A stretch of 64,000 bases of DNA from Fistulifera solaris (GCA_030295235.1 AP026155.1:372001-436000), one strand, 5' to 3'; positions 1-46,202 are shown, counted from the first letter of the stretch. Notes: generated by a model from the letters alone, not told the origin. Translations and numbers: made by a program.

Positions 1-365
1 GGGAGAAAGTAGCACCTCCAGGCCTCCGGGATTTATTGCTCGTTCGTCGTCCGAGATGTTCAGCTTCCACGTAGAGATTCTTGCTGCATGGCTGCTGTCG
101 ACAGAAGACAGGCTAACTTTGACCTTATCGGAGAATGTAAAATGATGAGAATGCGCATCGAAGTTCAAGTGGAAGTTCTTTTCCTCCGTTTGTGGCGTCA
201 AACGTGATGTTGATGATTGATGATTGATCGCATCGAAGTCGAAGGTGGACTGTGACAATCCTATCGATAGGAAGAGCATCGCTGAACAGAGAAGTGAAGA
301 TATTTCTCGATAGAGAGCTGGCAATCGCATAGAATAATTACTTGTCTGAAACCATAGAACTTAGA

Positions 366-7973: not shown

Positions 7974-8660
7974 GATTGCCTTAGAGTGTCGTTCAAAGAG
8001 GTCGAGACGCAATGATCATGTTCGTAAGCTCTGCTGTTACGACGACTCACTCGGTAGATGGTGAGATGGGGTGTGGTGTGTGTTGCGTGAAAACGACGCA
8101 CAATGTTCTTTGAAAGAAAACGATGCACAATTATGCACATAGTAACCTTGTCAACGGATCTCCAACGGAAGATGAAACGCGTGACTTAATTGGAATATGA
8201 ATGAAATCGTCGTTGAATATCAAAGTCGCAGCAGATTTTTGCCCTGTAATAACAGAATAGTCATTCGATGATATTAGCTCATTATTCGAGAGTGTAAAAA
8301 ACACCGCAATGCTTCAAGGAGTAGGAACGAGGGACTTTGCAGAAGCAATTCCTGTCACACCAAACGTCGTACCGGTTACATACAACTTATCTGTAAAAGT
8401 CTTTTGAGTTTCCAGTTGTCGGAGCACTTTTGCTTCTTATACAAAGTACTTTGTACTCCAGCAACCAGCAACCAGCAACTTCAGTCTCAGAAAACAGTCT
8501 CAGAAATTTTGAACGTGGCTGTTCTCGGAGGAAATAGCTCGAACGCGGGGCAGCAGCGGCGCATGACCTTTTGGAGCACGAGGGGGGGACAATAAAACTC
8601 CTCCTTGTGCCGCTTGTTGTATTCATTGCACATTTACAGACAACTCTTCATTGTTCAAAC

Positions 8661-9619
8661 ATGGAAGTCGTCAACGAACATGACGAGGCTGATGATGGAC
8701 ACCAAGGAATTGCGATAGTGGAAGACGAGAATAGCCGCGTGCAACAAAAACCTACGCGAGGGTCACCGGAGAGACCGAGGGGACTAAGCCGCAAACCGTC
8801 GGTTCAGCGCAGTGAAAGCGGTAGTTTGAATGCTATGCGAGGAGCTATTAGGCCTGGAACCATTCCGATTCGATCGCAGAGTATGCGAGCTGTCGTAAGA
8901 CCGTTGGCGCCGACGAAGAGCACGGATCACTTGGCCTCGATGCGCGCGAGTAGAGCTCAACGAGGAAACATTTCTCGCGTGGCCCCCGTCCGTTCCCAAA
9001 GTTCCGTCTTGGGTGCGCCCCGCCGAGTACCACCGGACAGGACAAGTAGCGTTGACTCTACCAATTCGTTACGTGCCTTTCGGCGCGATCAGATGGGGGC
9101 GTGGAACCAGGTACAATGGAACTACAGCGCCTTCGCGGAGGTCCGGGAGCTTCGCTCACGCGCAATCCGAGCGACATGTCCAACTTGACAGATATGACCG
9201 GCGGTGACTTGAGCTGCTTTACGATGGACTCCGTGAATTTGCGCAAGGCACAGCTGGTAGCTGATCCTATTTTCGCGGACGATGGTACCTACAACGAGGA
9301 AGATAGTTACGCCGATCATGAATCTGTTTCGCGAGCATCTATGTTCAGCGAGTATACTCCTGGAGCTGCGAGAAATATCCCCGAGCCGAGACTGGGTGTT
9401 AATCGGACCCCAAGTCGCTTGGGAGCCATCCGAGTGGATCGGAGACCGCATCCCGCTCAACCCAGGGAAGATGAAACTAGCTCGAGTGAAGAAGGAAATG
9501 ATGACGATGACGATAGGTCGTTCGGATCAGTGACTTCCGGTTTGACCCAGGACTTTACCGATAACGATTTCTTGGATGATTCGGAAAGCGAAAATCATCA
9601 CGAGGCTTCCGAAGGCTAA
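8661..9619 (+). CDS. Hypothetical low-complexity protein (R/S/P-rich, acidic tail)
   Basis: ORFs 8571..9188 and 9101..9619 join if one base is added to the G5 run 9095-9099. Confidence 0.6.
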
Positions 9620-21819: not shown

Positions 21820-22273
21820 AATTAAAATTTAACGCATTAAGCTATTCACACAAGAATGATATTTTTACAATAAAATGCGCAATGTTCTTGTCGACTTTTT
21901 TGTCGTCATAGTTGATGTTGTTGATGCCCTTCGCACTCGCACCGCGAGTGAAGACTTTTTCGCCTACGGTCGATGCTTTACAAAGTATTCAGCCCCTCCA
22001 CGCGTACCAGGTATCAATAAATTCGGGGAACTTTACCAAGTCGTCTCGACCTCCGTTTACTAGCTCTAGAGTCTAGCTAACAACTTCAATCGACCAACGA
22101 TGAGCCGTTTTTGTGATTCTATTTAGTTTACTACACCAACTTGGAACATCACATGCATCATTCGTTGCATAAGCTGCATTGTATCTCTACGCCTCGTGAC
22201 TGAAATTCTGCGAGAAGAGAAAAGTTTTGAACCTTTGACAAACGTTGCTAATAATAAAGGAGACGAGTTCCCA

Positions 22274-23321
22274 TTAATCTGTCTTTTTCGATCGCTTGAC
22301 TCCCACTTGGTAGCGTCCAAGGAAGAAAAGAACGAATAAGTACAGATAGCTGCCGTACATGATGAAATTGGGGACGAGGTGATATTGAACCGTCATGAAA
22401 CATCCGGCCGGCTTTTCGATAAACAGCAAGTACGATCCAAACATTGTGACACTCACACCCCCGACCATTTGAGCAATTTGCGCAATGGTGATCCACTTGG
22501 CATTCAGCCACTTGGGTTTTAAATGAACCGCCATCAAAAAATAGTAAAAATACATAATGGCATGCACGGCATAGTTCATGACGGCGAAAATAATGGCTGT
22601 GGGAGGGTTCATGATGTATCCTTGCCAGCAAAAGAGAAGAACCGAGATGTGGTGGTACCAGTGTAAAAAAAATTAATGGCTTCTTGTGCACCACGATAAA
22701 GAAGGTGTCCACCAACTCCCTATGACAACGGTGAGTGCCTCGAGTTCTTTGAAAGCCGAATGAATACGTGCAACAAAACAGTGACTTACGGAATTTTAGA
22801 CAAGACAAAGAATTGCGGAGAAATTCCAGCGGTTCCACTGCCCACGTTGGATTCTGGATCATAGCAGAAATTTTCTCTCCAGCTATAGAACATGTAGTTG
22901 TGAATCAAAACAGGCAAAAGCCGACACAAACCCCAGAAAGAAAACAGTGAGAGTGAAAAGTTCCAGAGTGCCAGTGTCTTTCGCATGTTCCAAGCCGGTC
23001 GATTCGCAAAATAGCGGCGTCCGGCGATGATGGCGACGCCGTAGAATAAGACGACCCAAACGGCCAAGAAAGGGCGTTCTCGCATCCAATCTCGGACAGG
23101 AACGGGATCGTACGTCTTCTCGAAGCTAAGAAAAAGACCCGGTAAGAATACAGTTGTTGATTGCGTCTTAAAGATTGCCGCAAAAAAACTTACGGTGTTA
23201 AGGTTTTCTCGATCCACGGATACAGGCAACTAAACTCTTCATATTGCACTCCGGCCACATTTGTGCGCACGCATTTCCCGGAAGGATCCGATGGGTGCCA
23301 TTGATACATTTGGTCATCCAT
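22274..23321 (-). CDS. Fatty-acid elongase (GNS1/SUR4, ELOVL6/delta0-type) paralog 1, 3 exons
   Basis: LSKIPELVDTFFIV, HWYHH, MNYAVHAIMYFYY, ITIAQIAQM, C-terminal KKTD. Introns 23126-23193 and 22720-22789. Frameshift in the A8 run 22665-22672. Confidence 0.9.
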
Positions 23322-24006: not shown

Positions 24007-25088
24007 ATGGTGGATAAAATTCAATATCCCGGTTTGACCGATCCTTCGTTGCAGCATTGCGTCCGTCTCAATTCGGGAAACCAAAAGTACTTGGATTTTG
24101 CATGTCTTTTTCCTACCTTTGGAAAAACCTACTTTCCGTAAGTTAATACCAGTACTACATAAGGAACAAGCAACTTTATTGAGATTTGTACTCACAAATT
24201 TGTCACCTTCATTTTCGTCATCCTCGTCTACGTCAGGTTCGAACTGAATTACGACCCTGTGGGCCCCCGTGATTGGATGAAGGACAACTTCTGGATTCCC
24301 GTTGCTTGCGCTATCATTTATGCTATCGCTATTTTCTGGGGACGTTCGTACTTTGAGAAACGATCCGCTTGGAACTGGCGTGCTCCCTTGGCCTTGTGGA
24401 ATTTCGGACTTTCGCTCTTTTCGACGATTGGCTTTATCCGCGTGGCCCCCTTTGTGTTGTTCAACATCTACTCGTACACCTTGAGAGAAAATTGCTGTTT
24501 TGATCCGGAAAGTCACGTGGGAAGTGGAGCTACGGGATTCTGGTCGCAAATGTTTGTCTTGTCGAAAATTCCGTAAGTCGCCCTTGTCAATCTCTCTCGA
24601 CACATCACACAACACTCTTTCTGACATTCGGCAACAGTGAACTCTTTGATACATTCTTTATTGTGATCCATAAGAAGCCTCTCATGTTCCTTCACTGGTA
24701 TCATCACATTTCGGTGCTTCTCTTTACTTGGCATGCCTATGTGAACAACTCGCCAACGGGTGCTTTTTTCATCTCCATGAACTATGGTGTTCACGCAATG
24801 ATGTATTTCTATTACTTCCTCATGGCGGTTCGAATGAAGCCCAAGTGGTTCAATCCGATCTGGATTACGGTGGCTCAGATTTCCCAAATGTTCGTCGGGG
24901 TGTTCTTGACCGTCTATACGACGTACATTCTCCATTTCGAAGAACGCGAAGACTGCTTGATGAGAAAAGACATCAACCAGTCGGCTTTACTCATGTACGG
25001 AAGTTATTTGTTCTTGTTCTGCAAGTTTTTCTTTGAGCGATATTACATTCGGGGAAAACCGAGCAAGACCTCTAAAAAAGTAAATTAA
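24007..25088 (+). CDS. Fatty-acid elongase (ELOVL6/delta0-type) paralog 2, 3 exons
   Basis: FLHWYHH, MNYGVHAMMYFYY, C-terminal KKVN. Introns 24138-24236 and 24573-24637. Confidence 0.93.
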
Positions 25089-25970: not shown

Positions 25971-27098
25971 ATGGCCGTTGATCCCTGTCTCGCTGTCAAT
26001 GGCGACAACCTTGAGTACCGAGAATTCTCTTGTCTTTACCCTCAAGTAGAGCACTTGTACACAAGGTGCGTTGCTGCTACATCATTATTTTCTCCTGAGA
26101 ACTTTGATTTTCCTTTATTTCCGAGGTCTCGCGACGAACAGGACGTCCATTCTTGTGCAGCGCATGCATATGAATCATCCATTCGATTTTGCGCCTCGTG
26201 ATTTCTCATCTTACGTACTTTTGTGTTTTGCACTCGACAGCTTCGAGAAATTCTATGACCCTATTCCTTTGTTGAACTGGATGAAAGGGCAGCCGGGTAT
26301 TCCGGTTGCGGCGTGTATCATTTATGCAGTATCGATCTATTACGGTCAGGCTTACTTTGCCAAGCGCGATCGTTGGAACTGGCGATATACTCTGGCGGTG
26401 TGGAATCTATTTCTGAGCGTCTTTTCGTTTGTGGGAATGCTACGTACGGCGCCGCACTTGTTCCACAACTTGACGCACCTTTCGTTCCGTGACAACATGT
26501 GTTTGGACCCCCGAACCACTTACGGCAGTGGAAGCACGGGATTGTGGGTGCAGTTGTTCATCTTGTCCAAGTTTCCGTAAGTAGTGCCGCCCGTTTGTAC
26601 TTAGGAGTCTTTCGTGACGGCTCTAACCCGCTCGGTTCTGATCTCTCTTTTCACAGTGAACTGATCGACACCTTCTTCATTGTGATTCACAAGAAGCCCC
26701 TCATTTTCCTGCACTGGTATCACCACATCACGGTGCTCTTATACTGCTGGCATTCGTACGTCACTACATCCCCTACGGGAATTATTTTCACAGCCATGAA
26801 CTATACGGTTCATGCTACCATGTACGGCTATTACTTTCTCATGGCCCTTAGAATGAAACCCAAGTGGTTCAATCCTATGGTAATCACTGCGATGCAGATT
26901 AGTCAGATGGTCGTCGGAGTGGCCACGACCATTGTGAGCTATTACTACTTCTTAACGGATGCCGAATGTGCTTTGGATCGGGGCAACAACATTGCGGCCT
27001 TTCTCATGTACGGAAGCTACTTGTTCCTCTTCTGTCAGTTCTTTTTCTCGCGATACTTTTCGCTCAAGAGCTCGCCTGTCAAAAAGAAGACAGTTTAA
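25971..27098 (+). CDS. Fatty-acid elongase (ELOVL6/delta0-type) paralog 3, 3 exons
   Basis: FLHWYHH, MNYTVHATMYGYY, C-terminal KKTV. Introns 26066-26240 and 26577-26656. Confidence 0.93.
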
Positions 27099-29057: not shown

Positions 29058-32000
29058 ATGGGAGTACCGAAATTCTTCCGATGGCTTTCCGAACGCTATC
29101 CTAGAATCATTCAACGCCATGGGAGTCGCCCCACAGACGCTACTTGTCAGGAGCATTTTGGAAAGCCACCTCCCGACTATTTGCCTCCACCCGATCCGCT
29201 CTCGGAATGCGGTTTAGCACCGGAAATCGATCGTTTGTACATTGACATGAATGGGATCATTCACGGCTGTTCCCATAATAATGCCGATCTTGAGTTGAAT
29301 CCTGACGCGGAAGGAGAAGCGGATATTTCCGAAGAAGAGATCTTTCGAAATGTATCGTACTATTTAGATCGGATCATCAAGGATATCGCGCAACCGAAAG
29401 AACTTGTCTACATGGCGATTGATGGTGTGGCACCCCGTGCTAAATTAAATCAACAACGAGCTAGAAGGTATAGGTCGGGTCAGGAGGGAGAGATTGAACA
29501 GACCGTCTACGACGCTCACATCAAAGCCATGGAACGAGAACAAGCTGAAATGGACAAACTCAAGGAAGCGAAAGAAAGGGATAGTCAGGAATACTCTGCA
29601 GATGGGGTCGAAAAAGTGAAGGAAATTCAACCGGGTCGTTTTACAGGCAAGTTTGAAACGTTCGAAGGCTCCTCGTATTCTGAGAGTGCTGAAGGCGACA
29701 AGAAAAAGTTTCATTCAAATACCATCACTCCTGGCACCGAGTTTTTCCAACGTTGCACCGATTATCTGGAGCAGTTCATCAAAGATAAAGTAGATCATGA
29801 TCCTGCGTGGCAGAATTTGACCATTGTCTTCTCGGGACCTCACGTACCCGGCGAAGGTGAACACAAAATCATGCAATTCATGCGTGAGCAACAAGCAAAA
29901 GATGATTACAATCCCAACCTTCGTCACTGCATCGTGGGTCAGGATGGTGACTTGGTCATGTTGGGTTTGGCCACGCATGAGCCAAATCTGGTTCTACTGA
30001 GAGAGCAAGTCGTATTTTCCAAGCGGGCCTTGCAAGCGGAGCGACTCTCACAAAAGTACGGTCTTGACATGTACATTCACAATCCAAATTTTGAATTCAT
30101 GCACATGAATTTGCTGCGGGACTATTTGGCATTGGAGTTCCGAACTTCGAACGTTATTCCGAACTCGTCCTTTGATCTGGAACACACGGTGGATGACTTT
30201 GTTTTCATGACATTTCTTGTTGGAAACGATTTTCTTCCGCACATGCCGGCGATGGATATTGCCGACGAAGCATTTGATCTTATCTTTTTCACGTATCGTG
30301 AATTGAGAAAAAAGTGGCTTCGGCAAAGCAACAAACGTCCTGGGTTGATTCCTTATCTGACACACGAGGGAAATATAGTGTCAGGGCGTCGTTTGGAGGA
30401 ATTTTTGACTTTGCTAGGTCAACATGAACTTTACTACTATGACTACAAGAAAACAAACGAAAACCTGGAAGAAACAAGACGAGTTGAGGATAAATATGGC
30501 TATGACTTTACCCCGAGTGATGATGTTATTGTCTCAAAAGAAGAATCCGATCGTGCTCGTTTTCGAGAAATGATACGCAAAAACCTTGCAGATGAGGCCA
30601 GTGATGTTGAGCTGCAAACACCGGACCAAGCGGAGTTTTTCGCGCCAGTGCTCTCCGGGCCGTTGCACAGGCGCCGGACTATTGCTGGCGACGAGCCTGG
30701 TGTTGATGGTGAAGGTGCCGGATTGTTCACGCGTATGGGGAGCTTGTTGCAATACTCAATCGCGTCAGATGATTCTGGTAGCACTTCGCTCCAAATCGAT
30801 GACCAAGACGTTAAAGGAAGGTACTACTACGATAAATTTGGATTTTCGCCATTCGATGCAGAGAAACACGTTGCACTTCGAAAAGCGTACATAGAGGGGC
30901 TCGTGTGGAACTTAAAATACTATTACGAAGGCTGTGTTTCGTGGGAGTGGTATTATCCATACCACTACGGTCCTATGTTGAGCGATCTCGTTGGTTTAGA
31001 GAAAATTTTGAAAGATATCTCCTTTGAAGGGAAAATGGGTGAACCTCTGAAGCCTTTCGAGCAACTCATGGCATGTATGCCACCTTCTCATGCAAAGTTA
31101 CTTCCCGAACCCTATCGGCCTCTTATGACAGACGAAAATTCACCCATCGCATCATTCTATCCGCGTACTTTCACAATTGATATGAATGGAAAGCGATGGC
31201 CTTGGGAGGCCGTGGTTCTTTTGCCTTTTATTGATAGCAAGCGTCTTATTGAAGCAGCGAAATCGGTTGACTCCTCGTTGCTCTCACAGGAGGAATTAAA
31301 TCGCAATAGGCAAGGCGAGCCAGTGGTGTTTCAACGACTGGCGGATGGAAGGGATGCCTCTACTGAGAGCAAAATCGAGGTGACACCGTTGTCGTCTAGC
31401 TTTTTACACTATGCTGGTAAGCGGGTACCACTTTTTCGACCGAAGCTAAAAGATGGTATCCAGGTACCGCTCGGTGGCCGTCCAACACTCTGTGACGGTC
31501 TTGTCGAAAGTGTGATGCTTCGATCTGTACATCTTAATGTTCATGGTATGCAGAGTCGGTACAAAACTGCTTGTTTGGAACTCAGAAATGAAGCACTGGA
31601 GGTTCTTCCTGCCGAAACTATTGCCCCGCATATGATTGGGACAGTTATCTACATTGATTATCCCCATTTGACGGAAGCTTTTGTAACAGCCGTCTCTGAT
31701 CAGCAATGCATCGTTCGCGGTAACAAAACAAAGCGTCCGTGGTCGCTGAAAGAAGCTGCTGACCGCAAAATCGAAAAAAGGCGATTGATGAAAAAGTTTT
31801 TCTTTGGAGACCAATTACCAGGGTCTGGAGGTATTTCGTTCGGTAAGCTAGATAGCATGATGGAGATAGAGACAGTACTCCATGTTCGCCCGTTGCGTGG
31901 ACTTGAAACGCTTAGTGATGGTAGAGTGGTGAAGACTTTCGCCAAGTTTGAGGTAGAAGTACCACTATTCGTTACGTCGTTCCTTCCTAGCGAAGATGAC

Positions 32001-32081
32001 AAAAGACTCGCAGGTATACCAGTCAAACTCGAAGAAGACCCTTTTATTCCACCAAGACGCTTGTGGGTAAACGAATGTTAA
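29058..32081 (+). CDS. XRN1: 5'-3' exoribonuclease (XRN1-like), possibly continuing into the beta5 ORF
   Basis: MGVPKFFRWLSERYP, LYIDMNGIIH, AIDGVAPRAKLNQQR, ITPGT, PGEGEHKIM, DGDLVMLGLATHE, VGNDFLPH, YPYHYGP, WEAVVLLPFID. Confidence 0.93.
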   Translation: MGVPKFFRWLSERYPRIIQRHGSRPTDATCQEHFGKPPPDYLPPPDPLSECGLAPEIDRLYIDMNGIIHGCSHNNADLELNPDAEGEADISEEEIFRNVSYYLDRIIKDIAQPKELVYMAIDGVAPRAKLNQQRARRYRSGQEGEIEQTVYDAHIKAMEREQAEMDKLKEAKERDSQEYSADGVEKVKEIQPGRFTGKFETFEGSSYSESAEGDKKKFHSNTITPGTEFFQRCTDYLEQFIKDKVDHDPAWQNLTIVFSGPHVPGEGEHKIMQFMREQQAKDDYNPNLRHCIVGQDGDLVMLGLATHEPNLVLLREQVVFSKRALQAERLSQKYGLDMYIHNPNFEFMHMNLLRDYLALEFRTSNVIPNSSFDLEHTVDDFVFMTFLVGNDFLPHMPAMDIADEAFDLIFFTYRELRKKWLRQSNKRPGLIPYLTHEGNIVSGRRLEEFLTLLGQHELYYYDYKKTNENLEETRRVEDKYGYDFTPSDDVIVSKEESDRARFREMIRKNLADEASDVELQTPDQAEFFAPVLSGPLHRRRTIAGDEPGVDGEGAGLFTRMGSLLQYSIASDDSGSTSLQIDDQDVKGRYYYDKFGFSPFDAEKHVALRKAYIEGLVWNLKYYYEGCVSWEWYYPYHYGPMLSDLVGLEKILKDISFEGKMGEPLKPFEQLMACMPPSHAKLLPEPYRPLMTDENSPIASFYPRTFTIDMNGKRWPWEAVVLLPFIDSKRLIEAAKSVDSSLLSQEELNRNRQGEPVVFQRLADGRDASTESKIEVTPLSSSFLHYAGKRVPLFRPKLKDGIQVPLGGRPTLCDGLVESVMLRSVHLNVHGMQSRYKTACLELRNEALEVLPAETIAPHMIGTVIYIDYPHLTEAFVTAVSDQQCIVRGNKTKRPWSLKEAADRKIEKRRLMKKFFFGDQLPGSGGISFGKLDSMMEIETVLHVRPLRGLETLSDGRVVKTFAKFEVEVPLFVTSFLPSEDDKRLAGIPVKLEEDPFIPPRRLWVNEC

Positions 32082-32493
32082 AAGGAGAAGAGGATGCAGA
32101 TCAAGCATCGAAGCGTCTTATAAACGTACCTGGCGCTTTTTCGTACACAATGAGGCGCCCCATAAAAATAAGATCGCGTGCGTTTCATTCAGGTGCAGGC
32201 GGGGTTTCATTTCAATCCAATTTTTCGACCGTCTCGAATCTTCCTTTTGGAAGCAAGGGTCGTGCTGAGCGCCCTAATGCGAGGATGACACTAAACTCAA
32301 ACTTGTCCCAGAGAGCCGCTTTGCGACCCAACTATCTGGGTGCACGGCACACTTCCTTGGGTTGTAGCAAAGGGTTTTCCCTTTGCCTTGTGATTGGACT
32401 TTCGTTTTTTGCTAATGCCTATGCGTCCATCGTGGGTCCATTAAGCAATGAGTTTTTGCTTCTTCGCCGCCAGTTCGCAGCCAATTTCCCAAG

Positions 32494-33207
32494 ATGACCG
32501 AGGATGCTTCCGACTATGGGTTGGTGACGCGTTCCACACCTCCTCTGGAATTCGAGCATGGCACAACCACAATCTCGTTTCTGTTCCAAGGAGGGATAAT
32601 CGCCGCCGTGGACTCGAGGGCCAGTTTGGGAAGTTTCATTGGTTCCAAGACGGTCCAAAAAGTGCTCCCCATCAACTCGCACATGATTGGGACCATGGCC
32701 GGCGGCGCAGCCGATTGCAGTTACTGGATCCGTCTAATCTCGCAGGAAGCATTGTTTTACGAGCTTTCTCGTTCACGTCGTATTTCGGTGACGCGTGTGG
32801 CAACTCTTTTGAGTAATGCACTATATGAGAATCGGAATCTGGGTTTGTCTGTGGGGACCATGATTATGGGTTACGACGACGACAAAGCTAGTCCTCCAAA
32901 AATCTTCTATGTCGACGATTCCGGTGCCCGTATCTCCGGTGACATGTTTGCCGTCGGTTCGGGGAGTACATTTGCGTTGGGCATTCTCGATACGGAACGG
33001 AAGTACGAAATGACCGTTGAAGAAGCAATTGATCTAGGCATCAAAGCTATCCGCCATGCGACTTTCCGAGATGCGTATTCTGGAGGTTTTATCAATGTCT
33101 TTTTGATTACCCGGAACAAAGGCTGGCGGCGTGTCTACAGTGAAGACTTATCGCGGTTTTTACGAGACCCAAGCAGCGGAAATCGCATCCCTTTGGAGCA
33201 AGAGTGA
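32494..33207 (+). CDS. PSMB5: 20S proteasome subunit beta5 (chymotrypsin-like)
   Basis: HG/TTT autocleavage site (Thr1 at 32563), AVDSRAS, KV, GTMAGGAADC, VGSGS, HATFRDAYSGG. The true start is probably upstream. Confidence 0.93.
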   Translation: MTEDASDYGLVTRSTPPLEFEHGTTTISFLFQGGIIAAVDSRASLGSFIGSKTVQKVLPINSHMIGTMAGGAADCSYWIRLISQEALFYELSRSRRISVTRVATLLSNALYENRNLGLSVGTMIMGYDDDKASPPKIFYVDDSGARISGDMFAVGSGSTFALGILDTERKYEMTVEEAIDLGIKAIRHATFRDAYSGGFINVFLITRNKGWRRVYSEDLSRFLRDPSSGNRIPLEQE

Positions 33208-33565
33208 CAGCAGAAACGAATTAGAGTAAAGATTAAGGACTAGGAATTATAACTAGAGAGTAGATTGTTATATTTGCATAGGTCTAGTTGGAGTAGAACA
33301 TAAAATAATATACTCCGGTACTCCCTAATCAAAAATCAATCGCACAGGTGCAAGTGAATCACGGTCATGAAGAAGTTTCGAACTAATAGAATATATAACA
33401 GTACGATATAAGGTTGTTCGCATTTATAGGAAGTTGTGGCTTTTGTGGCAGAGTGAGAGTAAAGGCCCACGCGAAAGATGAATAGGTCTAATCTCATTTC
33501 CTCTTTTGAATAACATTGTTTTAAAAATCATTTTTACCACCCAAACAAGATTTGATTCATCCAAC

Positions 33566-35624: not shown

Positions 35625-35996
35625 GGTGATTTCCGATGAAGACAATCAATTTAGTTGAGTAAATGATTCTTTTCAAGTCGCCTTCGGTGAAAAACCAAAA
35701 AATGCAACACGGCTGCGACGATGTTGAGACGAAAAACAAGTCTTCTCAAATCGTACCGGTAATCTATTGTTTAGTCCTAAAACAAAAATGAAACCGTTGC
35801 GGTACCCACCTTCCCACATTCAAGTTTAGAGTATAATGCGGTGGCGTTGAAAACCGCATCCGCCTTCATCTCGCTCGATGAGACGGCTCGACGAAACAGC
35901 CATTTGACCCGAAGAGAGGTGCAACTCCTACAACGGATCGCTAATTAAGAATCCCTTCTCCGTTCCCCGAATGATATCAACAACAGCGTTCGAAAA

Positions 35997-38900
35997 ATGA
36001 CAGAACCTGTAAATATTACATTACTGCTCGATCGGTTTCTTTCCGCGAGTACCGCCGCCGATGTGCAAAATGCCCTCGAACACGTGTTATCGGCTTTACA
36101 GGATCCATCCGCAACGGAGGCTCTTCTCGCCGAACCAGATGTCCTCAAAGGAATGCTAAAACTACTGGCAACGCAATCTTACAAAAATGTCGGGGTCGAA
36201 GACGGAGACAATCTCTGTGCACGGATTTTGTGGCAAATTCTGCAAACATCCGACACGGCCAAGACGTTGTTGCAACGTCCCGAACTCGCGCTAATTGAAG
36301 TCTTGATGGATGTCGCAGCAACAAACGAAGACGAAAGCATCGAACGGTCTTCCTATACACGCGTCCTGTGTTTACAATCGTTGGAAAAGTTGTGTCACCA
36401 AGCACCGCAACTCGCGCAACAACAATTGTTGCAAGCCCCGAATGGGTTGCATCGGTTGGGGGAATTGTTGCATTGCGCCGACTTGGCGGTAAGGAATCAA
36501 GCCTTACTGGTAGCCCATTGTTGTGCGGCATGGCCTGCCGTCAGTCAAGTCTGGATTTTTCTCAATATTGTGCCCACTCTCTTACAAGTGGCATTGCAAG
36601 AAGGAGGATTGCAAGGTGGGACCGTTGTGGTGCAGGACTGTTTGCGGTTGTTGAGGAATTTGTTGCGACACGATACTTCCATGGCAGAATTAGTCTTCCA
36701 AGAACAGACGTTGGCACCCCAATTGTCGGTCTTGTTGGATTTGCGCCTCGGAACCGAATTTGTGCATCCCGTTGCGAAAAAGAAAATCGAGCCGCTCTTG
36801 TCGCGCAAAAAAGCAGTTGATGACTTGGATGACCTTCTGATGGAACCAAGTAGCAATCAAGAATCTTCCTCTGACGAGGAAATCATATTGCCACGCCTCA
36901 CGCGCGATGAAGAAAAAGTCATCCATGCTGTTTTGGATATTCTGGAATTAGTGTTGGAGAACAACAAAGTGCGTCAAGCGATTTGTACGCAGGATTTAGC
37001 GTCCATGGTGTGGGAATTGGGGTTGGTCAATTTCCCACCTCCGGGGAGTCGCCGCGCCCTGTGCGTATCCCAGTGCAAGCTTGCAACAACGGGCTTTGCA
37101 AATTACCGCACGTTACTTGAATGATCCCATTCTGCTGCAAAATCACAATGCCCTCCACCGTCTACTGCATTTGGTGTGTATGGGAGGGATACCCAAGGAT
37201 CGGGAGGACAAGTTGGGTGTCTCGCAATCGGCTTTGCATCTGCTGCGTCAGACGGTGCCTCCGGCACAGGCGCAGGAAATTTTACTTAACACCTTGGCGC
37301 CTCCTCTCACGGAGGAGACACCGGATCTGACACCTGTGCAACGACTCCTCATAACAGTCGAGAACAATTTGGTAGCGCCACCGGATACGGGCCGCACGGT
37401 ATTACTCGTGGGATCGACGTGTGCCTTGTCACTCTTTTTGGTCGATACCGCCAGTCGTGAAATGATGGTAAGGTTGATGGACTCCGGGTTGTTGCCTTCG
37501 ATATTGGAATTGTTACCGAACGAACCCGATACTCTGGTTACGTTGGTGTTGCTGCGGTTTTTGTGTCAATGGATGGATGGATCTCCGTTGGTGGTGCAAT
37601 CGATTCTGGGTGCACCACAAAGTGCGACGGTTTTGGCGGCCCTGTTGGAATCGAAGGATTCAACCATTGCCGCGTATGCGTCTCTGTTGTTGGGAATGGC
37701 GTTGAATCAAATGACCGACCAGCAAGATGTCACGAAATATGGAGGATGGACCCGTGAGGGTATTTTGGATATTTTTAAACATTCATTGAAGCTGTTCCTG
37801 TTGCGATTGGACGAGCTTGGTCCCAATCTAAACATGTGGTCGTTCTGTCCTTTGGAACACAAAGTGTGGTTGGAGGAGTTTCAGGCCAATGTTTGGACAG
37901 TGCGAAGATGCCTGGTGGCGGAAATGACTGTGCATAGTGAGTCGAGCGATGAGATTTCGTCTATGCAGGCTTTGATTGAAAAACAATCCAGTGAACTGGA
38001 AGAACTTCGTCAGGAATTGAATTTTTCGAAGAAAAGTCTAGTCCAACAAGGTACGTTGTCATCGCATTTTTGATCTCTCTGCTTTGTTGTTTCTTCTAAC
38101 TTGCTCCCCTAGAAAAGGAATTGTTGCTTTGGAAAGTAAGGGCCGAATGCACTCCAACCCAACTAGATGAATTGCTCAATCAATCCACGTCGCGCAATAC
38201 GGCATTAGAGAAAAAGGTGGAAGAGTTGGAAAGCTTGCTTTATCATATTGAAGCGGAGCATGCCGCTGATGTAAGTCGAAATACGGAACTTGTCGAGTCA
38301 TTGCAAGCAGAAGTTCAGAATGCCTTGCAGAATGAAACCCAAACCCGGGAAGACTTGGAGACCATGCAAGGAGAAATGACTGCTTTGAGCCAAGCTTACA
38401 CTAATCTTGAGGCTGAGTATCGTCGTCAAACTGAGCTTCTATCTACGAGTACAGCAGGGGCCGAGGGCAGCGAACAAAGCGCTCATCAAAACCAAGGTGA
38501 GGACTCAGAGAAGGAATTGTCACGTGGAAATTCAACGGAGGTAGCTATTCTTCGTGCTGAAAATACAAGATTAAAGAATGATATGAAAGTGGCCGAGGAT
38601 TGGATGGCTATGGCTCATCAAAAGCTAAGTGAGATACTGACCGAGAATACTGCGTTGAAAGGCGAGGTGTCGTCGCTCAGAGGACAAGTACAATCTCTCG
38701 GTGACCAGAGTGCAGGTCTACAGCAAGAGTTAAACTCGTTGCGCGAATATTATGGCTCGTCGAGCAATGAAGATTTGCGAAGTATTATATCTAAGACTTC
38801 GCAACAAGCGGAATTAGAGACAAATCTGAGAGAAGAAGCCGAGTCAGAACTCATTCATATTCGTGGATTGCTGGAGAAGGTCGAGAAAGACAAAGCAGAT

Positions 38901-41900
38901 CTGGAGCAGCGCATGAGTGAAATGAATCAAATGTTTATTTCCGAAAACGCGGCCACTTTTGGCCACAGCCAACCTAAAACGTTGCCGGCCGAGAATGACA
39001 CAGTGAATCTTCACGAAGAAGTTGAAGCAGTGAGAAAGGAACTTGCATTTGTGCTTAAGAGAGAAGAGGAGGCAATAAGCAATCGCGACGCACGTATAAG
39101 TGAGCTCGAATCTTGTCTCGATGAACGTGGCTTTCCCTCGGAAGAGCTACTGAGACGAGATAAAGAGATAGAGGAGCTTAAGCAACTTACCCAGGTTGCC
39201 CAAGAATGGATGGATAACGCCATCGAGCAGTACCACGCACTGCAGCAAGATAAGGAAGCTCTTTTGTCGGAAAAAGCAACTTTGACTAACCAATTGAGCG
39301 AGCTGGACAATCAGATACAAACCCTGATTCCGTCCATTTCCATGGCGACAGCGCAACCGGATCTACAAGCCCTAACATTGGCTTTGCAAGAAAAGGACTC
39401 TCTTCTCAAAGAATCCATGGCGACTCTCTCAGAAATGCAAGTTAGCCTCACAGAGAAAGAACACAATCTTGACTCTTTGAGATTTGAACTTCAGTCAGCC
39501 AATGAAGAAATTCAACAGAAGTGCTCGGAGTTGGAGTTATTGAGGCAAAATAGTAATAGTGCAGCGAATGAAATCCAACATTTGCGGGCCCAAGCCAAGG
39601 CGCTAACGTCGCGCGAGCAAGAGTTATGCAAAGAAATTGACGACCTTCGAAATGGGCAATCGTCGAATCAAGATTTGGTCGAAGGTCTTCACGTTGAAGA
39701 AAAACTCCAGCCAATCTAATCTCCTTCTTCAAATTGAGGAGTACAAGACAATGATGAGAAATTTGGAAGCACAGTTGTCCGAACAGGAATGCGACTCAAA
39801 TGACATGGTAAAAGAATGGGAGACAACGTACACTGACCTAGAAAAGCGTCACAAGGAGGTCCTTGGCGAGAAGCAGAAACTAGAAGATCTTTGTAGCGCA
39901 AAAGACGCGCGGATATATGAGTTGCAAGACGAAAACAGAAGCAAGAATGACGAGGTGAACGAGCTGACTATTCTGTTGGAGGAAAAGGTCCGAGTGATGT
40001 CGACCACAAATATTGTTGATACTGGTGAGGAGGAGAATCGTGAGGACAAGGACGCGACTATCAAAACTCTTTCAGATGAAGTAGAGACTTTGAAACAGCA
40101 GTTGCAGGCCATGGACGCAGAGTCGGTGGACGCGATTTCTCGCTGGCAGGCTTCCTATGCCGATTTAGAAGCACGTTACTTGGAATTGTGCAACTCCAAG
40201 GAGACGCCTGTCGTTGATGGAAAAGATGCCGTGCAGCTTGGCTTAGAGGACGGTTCCGTCGATCGTGTGTCTGAGTTGACTTCTCAGGTAACAAGGCTTC
40301 AGCAAGCGCTGACGGAGGCCGAAAGTGAATCGGCGGCAGTGGTGGCGAAGTGGCAGGAAGCTTACGCCGAATTGGAAGACAAGGTCCGTGTCGCTTCCGC
40401 TGACGAATCTGGTATGGGTGCTGACGTACAGGCTAGTAATGACGCCTTGAGCGATCGTGTATCTGAGCTGAATGCGCTGGTTACGAGTCTACAAGAGCAG
40501 CTAAGAGAAGCCGATGCTGAGCACGCTACTGTTTTGGAGAAATGGCAGCAAGGATATGCCGAACTGGAAGAGAAGGTCCGAGTGATGTCGACCACAAATA
40601 TTGTTGATACTGGTGAGGAGGAGAATCGTGAGGACAAGGACGCGACTATCAAAACTCTTTCAGATGAAGTAAAGACTTTGAAACAGCAGTTGCAGGCCAT
40701 GGACGCAGAGTCGGTGGACGCGATTTCTCGCTGGCAGGCTTCCTATGCCGATTTAGAAGCACGTTACTTGGAATTGTGCAACTCCAAGGAGACGCCTGTC
40801 GTTGATGGAAAAGATGCCGTGCAGCTTGGCTTAGAGGACGGTTCCGTCGATCGTGTGTCTGAGTTGACTTCTCAGGTAACAAGGCTTCAGCAAGCGCTGA
40901 CGGAGGCCGAAAGTGAATCGGCGGCAGTGGTGGCGAAGTGGCAGGAAGCTTACGCCGAATTGGAAGACAAGGTCCGTGTCGCTTCCGCTGACGAATCTGG
41001 TATGGGTGCTGACGTACAGGCTAGTAATGACGCCTTGAGCGATCGTGTATCTGAGCTGAATGCGCTGGTTACGAGTCTACAAGAGCAGCTAAGAGAAGCC
41101 GATGCTGAGCACGCTACTGTTTTGGAGAAATGGCAGCAAGGATATGCCGAACTGGAAGAGAAGGTCCGAGTGATGTCGACCACAAATATTGTTGATACTG
41201 GTGAGGAGGAGAATCGTGAGGACAAGGACGCGACTATCAAAACTCTTACAGATGAAGTAGAGACTTTGAAACAGCAGTTGCAGGCCATGGACGCAGAGTC
41301 GGTGGACGCGATTTCTCGCTGGCAGGCTTCCTATGCCGATTTAGAAGCACGTTACTTGGAATTGTGCAACTCCAAGGAGACGCCTGTCGTTGATGGAAAA
41401 GATGCCGTGCAGCTTGGCTTAGAGGACGGTTCCGTCGATCGTGTGTCTGAGTTGACTTCTCAGGTAACAAGGCTTCAGCAAGCGCTGACGGAGGCCGAAA
41501 GTGAATCGGCGGCAGTGGTGGCGAAGTGGCAGGAAGCTTACGCCGAATTGGAAGACAAGGTCCGTGTCGCTTCCGCTGACGAATCTGGTATGGGTGCTGA
41601 CGTACAGGCTAGTAATGACGCCTTGAGCGATCGTGTATCTGAGCTGAATGCGCTGGTTACGAGTCTACAAGAGCAGCTAAGAGAAGCCGATGCTGAGCAC
41701 GCTACTGTTTTGGAGAAATGGCAGCAAGGATATGCCGAACTGGAAGAGAAGGTCCGAGTGATGTCGACCACAAATATTGTTGATACTGGTGAGGAGGAGA
41801 ATCGTGAGGACAAGGACGCGACTATCAAAACTCTTTCAGATGAAGTAAAGACTTTGAAACAGCAGTTGCAGGCCATGGACGCAGAGTCGGTGGACGCGAT

Positions 41901-44900
41901 TTCTCGCTGGCAGGCTTCCTATGCCGATTTAGAAGCACGTTACTTGGAATTGTGCAACTCCAAGGAGACGCCTGTCGTTGATGGAAAAGATGCCGTGCAG
42001 CTTGGCTTAGAGGACGGTTCCGTCGATCGTGTGTCTGAGTTGACTTCTCAGGTAACAAGGCTTCAGCAAGCGCTGACAGAGGCCGAAAGTGAATCGGCGG
42101 CAGTGGTGGCGAAGTGGCAGGAAGCTTACGCCGAATTGGAAGGAAAAGTCCGCATTTCGTCCCCCCGACAATAATCTCGTAGCTGATATCTCATGTAGTG
42201 ATAAGGATAAAAACTTAAGGCTCGATGATGTTGTACGACAAACTGAGACGTTCAAGCAACATGGACAAGACAGGGAGAGATATGATGAGGTTTCTCATGA
42301 AATTGCTTTGCTTCGTTCACAATTACTTGAACAGGAGACTGAAGCACAAGATGCAATCAGGCAGTGGGAAATCTCCTACGCAGAGCTTGAAGAGCGATTG
42401 CTTAAAGTTACAAAAGAACATGATTGTGCACTATCATCAGGTTCTCCAGGCATTGTCGACCCTCCTTTTCTTGAATCTGCTGCTGATAAGAAAAGTATGA
42501 GTGACAATGAAGCCGATACTCAGATTGCAATGGGCGATAACAATTTCCTCGATGCTTTCCGTGAACTGGAGCAACGTGTATCCAAATTGACGAGTGAGGT
42601 GTCTTTTCTGCAGCGAGAACTGGTTGATAGCGAAAAAGAAGCTGCTAATGCCATTTCTACATGGGAGCAAGCGTACGCGAACCTAGAAGCAGAGCTACAA
42701 TTAGCCAAGAAGAATAATTGTGAAAGACACGATAGTGAGGATGTGGATGACAGAGATAGCTTGCTGACAAAAATGACAATTCATATCGCGACACTGAACG
42801 AGCAGCTCTTATTATATCAGACGCAATTAAATTCACGAACAGCAATGAATAAAAGTGATCAAGTAAATTCCCAAGTTGGTGACTCAACAGCCAATATCAA
42901 CGATGGCACCGTAACGCAACTCGAGGTTTCGCTCAACACAGACGCCGATGCAGCTTTCGCGGAACAGCGATACAATGAAGGACCTGAAGAAAGTAGTCAA
43001 AGTAGCCTGCAAGCGGAAGTATATAGACTACAGTGCAATATCAAAGTCATGCAGGAGGAAAAACAAACATCAGTGGCTGAATTACAAGAACGTTTAGCCT
43101 CGGCAACATCAGAGATGGTCGAGACTAAACAACAACTTGGCCTATTAAAGACAGAACTCGAACAAAATAGGCTTCAAGCGAATGAAAAGGCAGAGTTTAT
43201 AAAGCAATTAAGTCTAGAACGAGACCTGCTGAGTGAGTCTTTTAGGCGACTTGAGGATCAGTACGAAAAAGATGTACTCGCTTTCAATTTGGAACGCAAA
43301 GTATTGGAGGATGACCTCTTTAGCACACGAGAAGAGCTTAACTCGAAGACAATGCAAGCTAAGAAGCTAACCAACGATCTCAGAGAAAGCCAGGAAGCGC
43401 TAAGTCAAATGGAGTTAAAAATGAGGGGAGCAGACGAGGAAGACAAACTTCGAGTTCTTCTTGACGAGAAAACCGCAGCCTTGGTATTGTTGGAGGAGGA
43501 TCTAAGTCTCAAGACGTTTGAGCTTCAAAGCAAAAGTGCTGAGTGGGAGAAAGCGAAGGAGCGTGAGGCTGGTAAGTCGATGACGGTCAAAAGATTATTT
43601 GTGTTCATTTGCGCTAAGTTTGTCCCGCATAGAATTGGAGAGAGAAATTTCCCGTCTTCAGTCAGAGTTGTCGGACCAAAAGGAGGAAGCGGAAATAGCA
43701 ATAGCGAGCTGGGAGACACGCTGCGAAGAGTTAGAAGAGCTCTGTAAGTTTTCGCAGGATGATAAAGATAAACTCAACGACGCGTTGGAACGGGCTGGCA
43801 CTCTTGAAACAAGACTTCGAGAAACAGAGGAGCTTTTCAATGCACGACTCGAAACTGCCATATCCGAGCACGATCGTGTACAGAAGGCCATAGCTGACAC
43901 CTTGCGTCTTCAAACACAAGCCGAACATGAGAGACTGGAACTGATCGTTAGTACTTTACAAAACGAGAAGGCAGTGCTTATAGCTGAACGAGACAATCTT
44001 ACCACACGAGTTGCGGAATTAGAAGACGAAGTGCTCGAGTCTAGAGATGCAATGCGCTTTTGCATAACGAATGGCATGTCTGATAAGGCATTCGAGATCG
44101 CGACGCAGTCTCTGCTCGAACAGCTCAATCAGATGAGCGAACAAGCTGCTTCAAACGCAGCTAGCTTAGTCATGGAGCGACAAGGTCGCCAAGCCGCCGA
44201 GGAAGAGGTGAGGCGATTGAGATCCGATCTTGCACTCATTCTTGGAATGGAAAATGGCAACGAAAACGTCGCGGAAATTCAAAAGCTTACACTCAAAACG
44301 AAAGGGTACATTCAAAGGAAGGAGGCAGCTGAAATTCAATCGCTCCGGTCATCGCTGGAGCGAGCTCAAGCCGAATTGTCTGGATCCAAAGCGTCGGAGA
44401 TGGAATCGAAAGAACGTTCCGCGAAGGCAAATATACGTGCGACCGCACTGGAGCAAGAGTTAATCTCATCGAGGAACGATTTCCAGTATCTGGTGAAGAC
44501 GATGGAGGAGATGAGAGAAGCAGAATTGTCCCGTCGAGTTTCTTTCGAGTATCGTATCGACTCACTTGAAAATGACAAGGCAATGCTTAAAAAGATCCAA
44601 GCTACCGAGATCGACAATCTTCGAAACGAACTAAATCAGATTTGCATAGAGCGCGATCGTCTGTTTGTATCTTTAAAAGATAGCGAAAAGAGCAAAGAAG
44701 CGGTGATGCTTGCGTCGAACCGTGCCCAGTTATCCAATTTGAACGAGGAATCGGACTTGCATGCTGAACTAGACATTTTAAGAATTGAGAAGGCTCGGCT
44801 CCTCGCTGCTACAGCCGACGAAACATTACAATTTGAGCGTCGTTTGCGTGACGCAGTCGCAGCTGAACGTTCATCGTCCGAAGCGGACCTCATCCTTGAA

Positions 44901-45593
44901 AAAGAATTGCGACTTGCTGCTGAGAGATCTGTCGATGCACTCAAGCACGAACTCGAACAAATGCAAGTTGATTTGGATCGACCTGTCCATCCAGACGACG
45001 CGTTATCGACAACTGAGGCAATTCCAACGTCGCATGAAATGGTAGAGTTAAAGGCGCAAATTGAAAGTTTATTGATGGAAAAAGGAATTTAAAATCTCAA
45101 GTCGATACCATCAAGGCAGAATCACAACGGCGAATTGAGGAGCTGGCCCGCGAGTGCCGGGAGGCAAAATCGGAAGCTCTGCGAGTGGAGAGAGAAAAGT
45201 CTGTTTGAGGCAGAGTTGCAAGCGGAAATGTCGCGTGTTCAAAATAACGGCTCCTTTAGAAGAAACGAAGTTGACACGGAGGAAAGTCAGGGCATTTTTG
45301 AAGAGAAGAAAGATGCAATGCAGCTGGAACATCTACAGCGACTCTATGAAGCAATAAAAGATCAAAAGGAAACCATAGAAGAGGAAAGAAGTGTTTATTT
45401 CGAGCTACTTTCCGAGCAAGATGACCTTCTCGCACTTTTGGCACAGCAAGATCTTATGGAATCATGTCTGAAAGCTGCTCTTTGTCGCTTGGGTGGCGCT
45501 GAAGCCGTGGAAGAAGCTGCACAGGAAGCCAGAGAAAAAGCCGAGGCACAGTACGGGAAATACATCGAAGTGTCGGCTGTTGAGTCGACCTAG
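35997..45593 (+). CDS. USO1: USO1/p115-like Golgi tether with a very long coiled coil
   Basis: Armadillo head (QLLQAPNGLHRL, VRNQALL, EGGLQGGTVVVQDCLRLLRNLL) and C-terminal EQDDLLALLAQQD. Introns 38051-38112 and 43572-43632. Homopolymer frameshifts at 37043, 39700, 42161, 45079 and 45195. Confidence 0.8.
39985..42145 (+). repeat. Coding tandem repeat, 588-bp (196-aa) unit, about 3.7 near-identical copies
   Basis: Unit starts AAGGTCCGAGTGATGTCGACC at 39985, 40573, 41161 and 41749. Confidence 0.97.
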
Positions 45594-46202
45594 TGACTTC
45601 TTCAATTCAATCTCCCATTTTGGATTGCATTCTGCCAATAGAACGGCCTGCTCTCCGCGCGTCACCATTATGATTCAACAATGCAATGAGAAGCGAGACA
45701 GACATTAGCTTCGCACTGACTCACATAATCTAGATTCTAGTGTGGAATATCACTCTCAGTAAAAAAAGCAATAACTTACCCAGATACGGTTTACTTGGAG
45801 AGGAGCTTATAGGCTTTAAGCAGACGATGTGTTGCTGAGAGAACGACGTCATCATTACCGAATGGCAGACAGACTTGGAACAAAGCCGAAGGCTAAAAGC
45901 CGCCATCCACGAAAACTTTCATCACAACAAAATTGTCCCATTAACCATTCCCTACATTCTATTTTAAAAAGCTTGCATTCATCAGCAAGGAAACATACGT
46001 TGTTACCATAAAATCATCGAAACTATCCCCATTTGCAGACTTGAGCTCTCCCTCGGTAGTTTACTGATTGTTTTTCTTCCGTCGAGAACTCGTGATTGCC
46101 GCGCCAAGAATTTCGGAGGTGAAATAGTGATGATTTGCCAATAGACAACCTATCTTGCAGACGAAACAGCGAAGTGTCTGGATCCCAAAACAAGGAATCA
46201 CG

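Follow-up and report, generated by a model that had tools for sequence, protein, structure and literature searches.

Does the diatom Fistulifera solaris make the beta5 subunit of its proteasome as the tail end of an exoribonuclease? The question arises from a stretch of 64,000 nucleotides (nt) of its genome (GCA_030295235.1 AP026155.1:372001-436000), called here the window, in which frames for an XRN-type 5'-3' exoribonuclease, a linker and proteasome beta5 follow one another with overlaps. We consider it highly probable that the three are one gene for a precursor of 1383 amino acids (aa), XRN-linker-beta5, whose frame is broken by T-run deletions in the assembly, that the fusion is an old one of diatoms, and that the precursor is a likely source of beta5, cut at Gly1169/Thr1170.

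Reading frames and the two T-runs

Listing the open reading frames (ORFs) of the window recovered three that overlap on the plus strand, each in a different frame, as an earlier note on this DNA had claimed:

29058..32081, plus strand, XRN ORF, 1007 aa, frame 0
32063..32497, plus strand, linker ORF, 144 aa, GTG start, frame 2
32494..33207, plus strand, beta5 ORF, 237 aa, frame 1

Pfam places XRN_N, XRN_M and XRN1_D1 in the first ORF and Proteasome (PF00227, 155 bits) in the third; a scan of the linker at E-values up to 0.01 returned no family, for example no Ump1-like domain. Frame 2 is open from 32000 to 32494, sharing about 27 codons with the end of the XRN frame and a single base with the start of the beta5 frame. 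The earlier note had also stated that there is no intergenic or promoter space. This needs qualifying: as the window is written, 412 nt lie between the apparent XRN stop and the beta5 ATG, a distance comparable with the 283 nt between the upstream gene and XRN; the statement holds only because frame 2 stays open across the 412-nt gap.

Two short homopolymers account for the changes of frame:

32042..32045, plus strand, T4 run one T short, TTTT between C and A, creating a false TAA stop at 32079-32081
32453..32457, plus strand, T5 run one T short, TTTTT between G and G, creating a false TGA stop at 32495-32497

Adding one T to each run had been proposed to give a single frame of 1383 aa, and a public F. 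solaris protein of that length (P0121; source name 5'-3' exoribonuclease 1; 100% identity to the XRN ORF) matches this frame exactly. P0121 consists of window positions 29058-32045 (996 aa), 32045-32455 (137 aa) and 32455-33204 (250 aa), each piece identical, and comparison with the window indicates that bases 32045 and 32455 are each needed twice to obtain it. Introns were ruled out as the cause of the two frame changes because such reuse of a base is impossible for an intron, and one extra T per run suffices.

Read evidence came from contigs of four public runs (X1-X4) of one study, whose status as RNA is a guess, compared with the window over 31500-33300. A T is inserted behind 32041 in the sole spanning contig of X1 (1/1) and of X2 (1/1). 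At the second run, a T is inserted behind 32452 in X1 record 5, a contig of 936 nt with 0 other differences that covers 32042-32970, from the linker start into beta5, and in X3 record 20, a contig of 251 nt that is otherwise identical to the window. The contigs therefore have the extra T at both runs. The outcome is the opposite of the one named beforehand as fatal to a fusion, namely confirmed stops and no fused orthologues in relatives: neither stop is borne out, and there are many orthologues with the fusion.

The same fusion is encoded a second time in this organism. The homeologue P0122, of 1392 aa and with 89% identity over the XRN part, preserves the frame and has the same D-P-F-Y-S-T-K junction at the first run, although identity between the two F. 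solaris linkers drops to about 61%. Contigs of a second set match P0122; they depart from the window at about 4-8% of positions, contain 3 extra nt behind 32872 and diverge at the 3' end after 33204. X3 record 21, with 63 differences in 846 nt, belongs to this other subgenome's copy and continues into 21 A:

33255, plus strand, probable poly(A) addition site of the homeologous copy, 48 nt past the stop

This tail suggests that the runs are RNA, and the homeologous copy is apparently expressed too. Judged by P0121 and P0122, both F. solaris homeologues keep the fused frame.

It might be argued that the window is correct as it stands, with two neighbouring genes and a chance open frame between them, or with programmed frameshifting or transcriptional slippage at the T-runs. 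Both stops are, after all, present in the window sequence, a spacing of 412 nt would be an ordinary intergenic distance here, and the contig runs may be RNA rather than DNA. However, P0121, recorded from a contig of 325,945 nt, equals the reading with an extra T at both junctions, assuming that it is an exact conceptual translation of genomic DNA, and the homeologue and about 90 other diatom proteins are plain continuous ORFs, with the linker frame conserved at the protein level. To our knowledge, runs of four and five Ts are short for slippage. Programmed frameshifting and slippage were rejected on the P0121 reading and the continuous ORFs, and we give almost no credence to a correct window. 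As far as sequence can tell, the two apparent stops are one-base T-run deletions in the assembly, that is, sequencing errors, and the comparisons of predicted proteins confirm the XRN, linker and beta5 frames as one gene.

Distribution of the fusion

The homologue set comprised the best 120 XRN matches, with precomputed Pfam assignments and with taxa taken from the minority of matches that are named. XRN_N, XRN_M and XRN1_D1 (PF03159, PF17846 and PF18332) are combined with PF00227 in 91 of these, and XRN followed by HG/TTT is found in 95, the four extra being models cut shortly after Thr1. The search for single proteins with XRN_N plus Proteasome domains in relatives, an idea of the earlier note, thus gave about 90 fused homologues across diatoms. 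All named fused matches are diatoms: Fistulifera, Mayamaea, Cylindrotheca, Nitzschia (two), a Bacillariaceae metagenome-assembled genome (MAG), Seminavis, Amphora, Pseudo-nitzschia, Skeletonema (two), Conticribra, Detonula, Thalassiosira and Corethron (two). Seven fused matches are derived from transcripts (P0166, P0170, P0205, P0209, P0232, P0236 and P0237), and two more such proteins came from cluster look-ups.

The other 25 of the best 120 are mostly N-terminal XRN pieces of 558-762 aa. Among them, P0179 and P0207 end inside the linker, and P0210 ends inside the XRN body, its cluster holding a member of 1588 aa. Two are Thalassiosira-type models, with a SAP domain at the end of P0222 and the linker at the end of P0223, and one of the 25 is a plant XRN with 31% identity.

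The beta5 part leads to the same group of proteins. When it was searched against 1.84 billion representatives, 36 of the 150 best matches had at least 59% identity, and 21 of these 36 exceed 600 aa and have beta5 as their C-terminal part. Within the 150, long proteins that end in beta5 are confined to this identity range. XRN domains were confirmed by Pfam in P0403 and P0404, and eight others have them in the list of XRN matches. Below 56% identity, nearly all beta5 matches among these 150 are 200-350 aa long; the longer proteins that were checked by Pfam (P0434, P0435 and P0498, at 47-51% identity, as well as P0429 and P0483) have no XRN domain. Among the matches listed, the fusion appears confined to the diatom type. 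In a protein atlas, the fused proteins form a cluster of their own with 73 members, in addition to generic XRN clusters. The fusion itself is certain at the level of predicted proteins, as is its breadth across diatoms; by the same measure it is old and kept in most of them.

The exoribonuclease and beta5 parts

The corrected gene divides into the following parts:

29058..32045, plus strand, XRN1-type 5'-3' exoribonuclease part, residues 1-996, frame 0, identical to P0121 1-996
32046..32562, plus strand, linker or pro-region, residues 997-1169, frame 2 to 32455 and then frame 1
32560..32565, plus strand, Gly-1/Thr1 codons GGC ACA (Gly1169, Thr1170), predicted autolytic site
32563..33207, plus strand, mature proteasome beta5 domain, 214 aa, stop at 33205-33207

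In the XRN part, XRN_N spans aa 1-317 (E 9.9e-85), the best stretch of XRN_M aa 572-762 (E 1.4e-86) and XRN1_D1 (PF18332) aa 807-964 (E 3.7e-16), and the part ends in a conserved K-L-E-E-D-P-F motif. It shares these three domains and the acidic active-site blocks with Kluyveromyces lactis Xrn1, an enzyme of the XRN1/Pacman type (3PIE). The match to chain 3pie_A (E 2.8e-122) aligns the DMN, DGVAPRAK, GEGEHK, DGD and GNDF blocks and reaches to about residue 920 of the 1155 in that chain, which we take to be the end of D1. Unlike in Xrn1, no D2-D4 and no C-terminal region of the fungal and animal kind was detected, either in the Pfam scan or in the alignment with 3pie_A, and the C-terminus of the diatom protein runs on into beta5. 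Xrn2/Rat1 chains score almost as high as Xrn1, and the assignment to XRN1 rather than XRN2 therefore depends mainly on the D1 domain. All five acidic motif patterns of XRN occur in 81 of the 95 fused proteins, the misses being mostly N-truncated models. The XRN half is thus, from its motifs, apparently catalytically active.

The beta5 part matches Proteasome PF00227 with 155.4 bits against a cut-off of 22.4 (E 1.7e-45) over profile positions 2-187 of 189. The mature beta5 chains 1iru_L, 1g0u_K and 4r3o_L each align their own residue 1 to residue 1170, and after the XRN chains all listed structure matches are PSMB5, PRE2 or PSMB8 chains (E about 1e-64 to 1e-55). Related proteins bear source names such as '20S proteasome subunit beta 5'. 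That Thr1, Asp17, Lys33, GSG and RD..SGG are intact, as had been read from the sequence earlier, is borne out by an alignment of 19 sequences in which T24, T25, T26, D40, K56, G155-S156-G157, R192, D193, S196, G197 and G198 (numbering of the beta5 ORF) are invariant. In the 85 fused proteins that continue for 180 residues or more past Thr1, Gly-1, Thr1, Asp17 and Lys33 are present without exception (85/85), RD..SGG likewise (85/85) and GSGS in 77. A P-P-L-E-F-x-H-G block directly before Thr1 is conserved, and in an AlphaFold2 (AF2) model the confidence score pLDDT (predicted local distance difference test) is mostly above 90 for the beta5 domain. The beta5 half looks active, and it is predicted to be incorporated into the 20S particle and to lose its pro-region by autolysis.

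With the beta5 precursors of animals and yeast (PSMB5 and Pre2) the diatom protein has in common the full PF00227 domain, Gly-1, Thr1, Asp17, Lys33, GSG and RD..SGG. What sets it apart is the N-terminal side, where an extension of about 1170 residues includes a whole enzyme, compared with 41-95 residues in the non-diatom beta5 proteins examined. The L-D-F-L-D-type propeptide pattern of other eukaryotic beta5 proteins is missing, and there is a hydrophobic, signal-like segment instead, together with R-G-G in 45 of the 95 fused proteins.

The linker

The linker is basic, of low complexity and predicted to be disordered. In 27 aligned fused homologues its frame is kept and its sequence is variable. 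Where the conserved F-E-V-E-V-P-L-F-type motif that closes D1 could be located, Thr1 mostly follows it at a distance of about 180-310 aa, and at 199 aa in the window protein. When residues 943-1383 were modelled by AF2 with an alignment of 42 rows, most of the linker scored a pLDDT below 50 (means of 10-residue blocks below 57). The model assigns no helix to the hydrophobic segment, which is weak evidence because the alignment is shallow there.

32375..32434, plus strand, hydrophobic signal-peptide-like segment FSLCLVIGLSFFANAYASIV, frame 2, conserved

A hydrophobic stretch that could be a transmembrane or signal segment had already been pointed out in the linker, and it is real. Its most hydrophobic 19 aa, LCLVIGLSFFANAYASIVG, end 42 aa before Thr1, and a comparable 19-aa stretch is present in 95/95 fused proteins, with a mean Kyte-Doolittle value of 1.06-2.48 and an end 32-84 aa before Thr1. 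By eye and hydropathy, many rows share a layout of a basic R-x-R flank, about 16-19 hydrophobic residues and then small residues. More than 800 residues precede the segment in the window protein and the 95 fused proteins, so that none of the 95 has it at the N-terminal position expected of a cleavable signal peptide of the endoplasmic reticulum (ER); only in stand-alone forms of beta5 is it N-terminal. Most of the non-diatom beta5 propeptides compared lack it (values below about 1.0).

Between this segment and the predicted cut, a second feature recurs. R-G-G is found within 90 residues before Thr1 in 45 of the 95 fused proteins, against a background of 0.016 per 90 residues; it stands 18-37 residues before Thr1 in 41 of these 45, with a median of 24 over all 45. 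In the fused homologues P0142-P0234 an acidic residue (Asp or Glu) mostly comes after it, and Ile, Leu or Pro before it. The window's own protein has no R-G-G motif before Thr1. R-G-G resembles the C-terminal tail of ubiquitin-like proteins, and it could be a processing site. A similar F-R-G-G-G occurs in the beta5 of Tribonema (P0288). Farther upstream, most of the 27 aligned linkers have a short R-x-(F/Y)-S-T-like motif (seen by eye and uncounted).

SAP domains (PF02037, precomputed Pfam) were also noticed in the fused proteins P0124, P0126, P0127 and P0226 and in P0222 and P0223. In P0222, a Thalassiosira exigua model with no beta5, the C-terminal SAP domain follows L-E-K-N-P-F, where the linker would be.

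No Met in the linker is conserved across the 95 fused proteins. The Met nearest to Thr1 is 6-343 aa upstream (median 46) and more than 100 aa upstream in 19 of the 95. In P0123, P0139, P0166 and P0168 the distance is 212-343 aa, which puts this Met at the XRN end of the linker or past it, and so distant a Met implies that beta5 is without an AUG start of its own in those species. Since there is no conserved internal Met, beta5 probably must be cut out of the polyprotein.

Alternatives to a precursor and the ancestry of beta5

Several points weigh against a polyprotein as the source of beta5. At the first T-run, both spanning contigs carry 3-7 other differences from the window, so they are probably the homeologous copy, and window-identical contigs stop at 32041 or begin at 32042. 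X1 record 5, one of the latter, has 6 letters at this end that do not align; they would fit the extra T plus five matching bases, and it is these letters and P0121 that speak for the extra T in the window's own copy at this run. The window has a Met 23 codons before Thr1, so the earlier note was right that the beta5 ORF on its own would have a propeptide of 23 aa. Contigs cannot reveal transcript starts, which leaves room for an internal promoter. Some diatoms have beta5 alone (a Leptocylindrus-type lineage, Thalassionema and one other lineage represented by P0009), which means that XRN is unnecessary for the maturation of beta5. The case against a second beta5 gene in fused diatoms draws on lists of the best 120 matches rather than on a genome search. 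A folded XRN of about 115 kDa is too big for the proteasome chamber in which propeptides are normally removed, and a simple picture of a giant propeptide therefore needs an extra step. Finally, the precursor, the cut and the free XRN are all deduced from sequence.

Some of these points would also fit a different account, in which the fused ORF is real, but beta5 comes mainly from a shorter mRNA with an internal promoter, or from internal initiation, and the fusion protein is a minor or unprocessed by-product. The ATG before Thr1 in the window could serve as the start, the contigs would not betray such a transcript, and the stand-alone beta5 proteins of several diatom lineages begin just before the hydrophobic segment, so a protein of this kind is functional. 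We nevertheless regard this account as unlikely. Although the linker evolves fast, 95 proteins from across the diatoms, both F. solaris homeologues among them, have kept the frame open through it, which would be unexpected if the junction were untranslated. The Met is not conserved and, as described above, is separated from Thr1 by more than 100 aa in 19 of 95 proteins and by 212-343 aa in four; in P0122, there is no Met in the last 76 residues before Thr1. The whole fused ORF is also present in transcript assemblies.

The stand-alone proteins bear on the history of the fused one. The Leptocylindrus-type beta5 belongs to a 90% cluster that includes a Leptocylindrus aporus entry, and begins with Met and about 18 residues, followed by the hydrophobic segment. 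At its locus (L001, gene at 7995-8969), no XRN similarity was found within 8 kb upstream or 6.9 kb downstream of beta5, and the upstream neighbour (6623-7507) is on the opposite strand. In Thalassionema nitzschioides transcripts and in P0009, the ORFs are labelled 'complete', presumably because of an upstream in-frame stop, and start just before the hydrophobic segment. The beta5 proteins of brown algae (P0284 from Pylaiella and P0286 from Ectocarpus) likewise begin with a basic stretch, the hydrophobic segment and small residues. The stand-alone proteins P0245, P0246, P0255, P0284 and P0286 all have this signal-peptide-like start, which is odd for a cytosolic proteasome subunit. A signal-like beginning of beta5 thus seems to be common to ochrophytes as a whole.

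In a beta5 tree, diatoms and other ochrophytes fall on one side of a 100/97 split, with green algae, red algae, animals, fungi and others on the opposite side. Diatom beta5 proteins, stand-alone forms included, form one clade on a long branch. The alignment is short (215 columns); it places diatoms with ochrophytes and does not order the diatom lineages or time the gain or loss of the fusion. Together with the stand-alone and brown-algal forms, the tree indicates that fused beta5 is of the ordinary ochrophyte lineage and that the pro-segment predates the fusion with XRN; the hydrophobic segment must be older than the fusion, because brown-algal beta5 has it.

Could the fused beta5 be a specialised paralogue, sent by the signal-like segment to a place such as the ER or the plastid periphery, with a canonical beta5 elsewhere in the genome? 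The segment does have the n/h/c layout of a signal peptide and stands at the very N-terminus in the stand-alone forms, and diatom beta5 lies on a long branch. We think this very unlikely, however. Searches with the window beta5 and with brown-algal beta5 returned no named second beta5 of diatoms or brown algae among the best 120 matches of each. The grouping of diatom and ochrophyte beta5 at the 100/97 split, away from red and green algae, fits vertical descent of an ordinary gene. The stretch from the segment to Thr1 is acidic, probably unlike a transit peptide. A lone beta5 outside the cytosol would have no partners, and a membrane-spanning segment in the fused form would separate beta5 and XRN across the membrane.

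Among the best 120 matches of the window beta5 or of brown-algal beta5, there was also no named diatom stand-alone beta5, both searches being limited to proteins of stand-alone length. The only named diatom entry in the two lists is a partial MAG fragment of the fused type. The same lists include named green, red and brown algae, animals and fungi, and several diatom proteomes are in the collection. This suggests that fused diatoms have no separate canonical beta5. Given that the linker has no conserved start codon and that these lists contain no named separate beta5 of a diatom, the cell most likely obtains its beta5 from the precursor.

Proposed processing of the precursor

Active beta subunits are made with N-terminal pro-regions, the bond between Gly-1 and Thr1 is cut autocatalytically as half-proteasomes join, and the pro-region is trimmed in the chamber. 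In solved assembly intermediates, tails of chaperones pass through the pore of the alpha-ring.

We infer that the whole precursor is translated as one chain. The beta5 domain would then enter the half-proteasome, with XRN kept outside on the long flexible linker. The cut between Gly1169 and Thr1170 would expose the catalytic Thr1 and activate beta5, and XRN with a linker stub would be freed by this autolysis or by an earlier cut in the linker. To accommodate the bulk of XRN, the linker might either exit the particle or be cut before dimerisation, and the hydrophobic segment and R-G-G are candidate sites or handles for a step before dimerisation. The outcome would be one XRN per beta5, or two per 20S particle. 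The benefit of the fusion is more likely to be co-expression or stoichiometry than chaperoning. Release of XRN by beta5 autolysis itself, and with it a coupling of RNA decay to proteasome biogenesis, as proposed in the earlier note, is one conceivable version of this scheme.

More tentatively, we suggest that in most diatoms an obligate XRN1-beta5 polyprotein could be the sole route to beta5, the chymotrypsin-like subunit, delivering two XRN1 per 20S particle, with the hydrophobic segment and R-G-G marking a new step before assembly; this stronger proposal is rather doubtful. If it is true, mRNA-decay capacity would be fixed to proteasome biogenesis, and a step of tethering or cleavage before assembly would solve the steric problem of a 'propeptide' of 115 kDa.

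Neighbouring genes and other frame breaks in the window

The flanking genes are those of an ordinary compact eukaryotic genome, with a GFO/IDH/MocA oxidoreductase ending at 28774 and a phosphoribosyltransferase beginning after 33506. The earlier note had described the two T-run deletions as the same class of indel that breaks many other genes here. This stands in part, since exportin-T has a frame change at a T6 run that is a candidate, and three fatty-acid elongase genes look intron-split.

These elongases are ELO (GNS1/SUR4) paralogues at the following positions:

22251-23229, minus strand, ELO paralogue
24163-25085, plus strand, ELO paralogue
26050-27095, plus strand, ELO paralogue

Each is split into two overlapping frames at about Pfam position 99, and there is a GTAAGT at 24573. 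The breaks look like a conserved intron rather than an indel, which means that not every frame break here is an assembly error.

The exportin-T gene is in three pieces:

46134-49093, plus strand, exportin-T
48670-48675, plus strand, T6 run at the last frame change of exportin-T

The Pfam profile is continuous at position 456 across the T6 run, a candidate homopolymer error. The other break, at 48003-48005, is just past a GTGAGT at 47988.

Two further regions have changes of frame:

333-1432, plus strand, UAA/EamA nucleotide-sugar transporter
35949-45590, plus strand, seven long ORFs in alternating frames, about 9.6 kb

The two frames of the transporter overlap at 992-1091, and a T5 run at 1010 is a candidate indel; a GT..AG pair at 970-1000 was rejected as an intron because its phases do not fit. 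Within the second region, ORFs on the opposite strand recur about every 290 nt between 39850 and 42190. This suggests one very large repetitive gene, possibly with breaks by indels or introns.

Significance of the fusion

Public databases already contain fused models, labelled automatically with names such as '5'-3' exonuclease/20S proteasome alpha/beta subunit' or 'proteasome endopeptidase complex'. A full-text literature search, judged by titles and the openings of abstracts, gave no description of an XRN-proteasome fusion or of a signal-like beta5 propeptide. What is new here is the recognition of the fusion as a conserved and probably obligatory precursor, and of an odd pro-region that it has in common with brown algae. 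At a practical level, the assembly proves to have homopolymer errors that give false stops.

The Nup98-Nup96 autoproteolytic precursor and the fusions of ubiquitin with ribosomal proteins are natural precursors of two proteins. As in these, one ORF would deliver two unrelated proteins at a ratio of 1:1 with a built-in cleavage site. The diatom case, known from sequence, would differ in that the cutter is the downstream protein's own Thr. The active-site threonine of beta5 normally fires only inside the assembled proteasome. TPI-GAPDH is a lineage-specific metabolic fusion of stramenopiles, and is comparable in that two housekeeping genes are fused in one algal lineage and can be used as a phylogenetic marker. 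In contrast to TPI-GAPDH, the diatom fusion joins partners from two separate pathways, mRNA decay and protein degradation, and its downstream partner has to be released by a cut in order to work. The XRN-beta5 fusion may itself be a clean phylogenetic marker, as it is present from Corethron to raphid pennates and absent in the Leptocylindrus-type lineage.

Propeptides of beta5 are thought to be short, chaperone-like and destroyed inside the closing proteasome. An entire, apparently active exoribonuclease as the pro-region of beta5 challenges ideas of how half-proteasomes dimerise and mature, and offers a natural system for probing what the N-terminal side of beta5 tolerates. It may also be read as a 'Rosetta-stone' hint that mRNA decay and protein degradation are functionally linked in major primary producers of the ocean.

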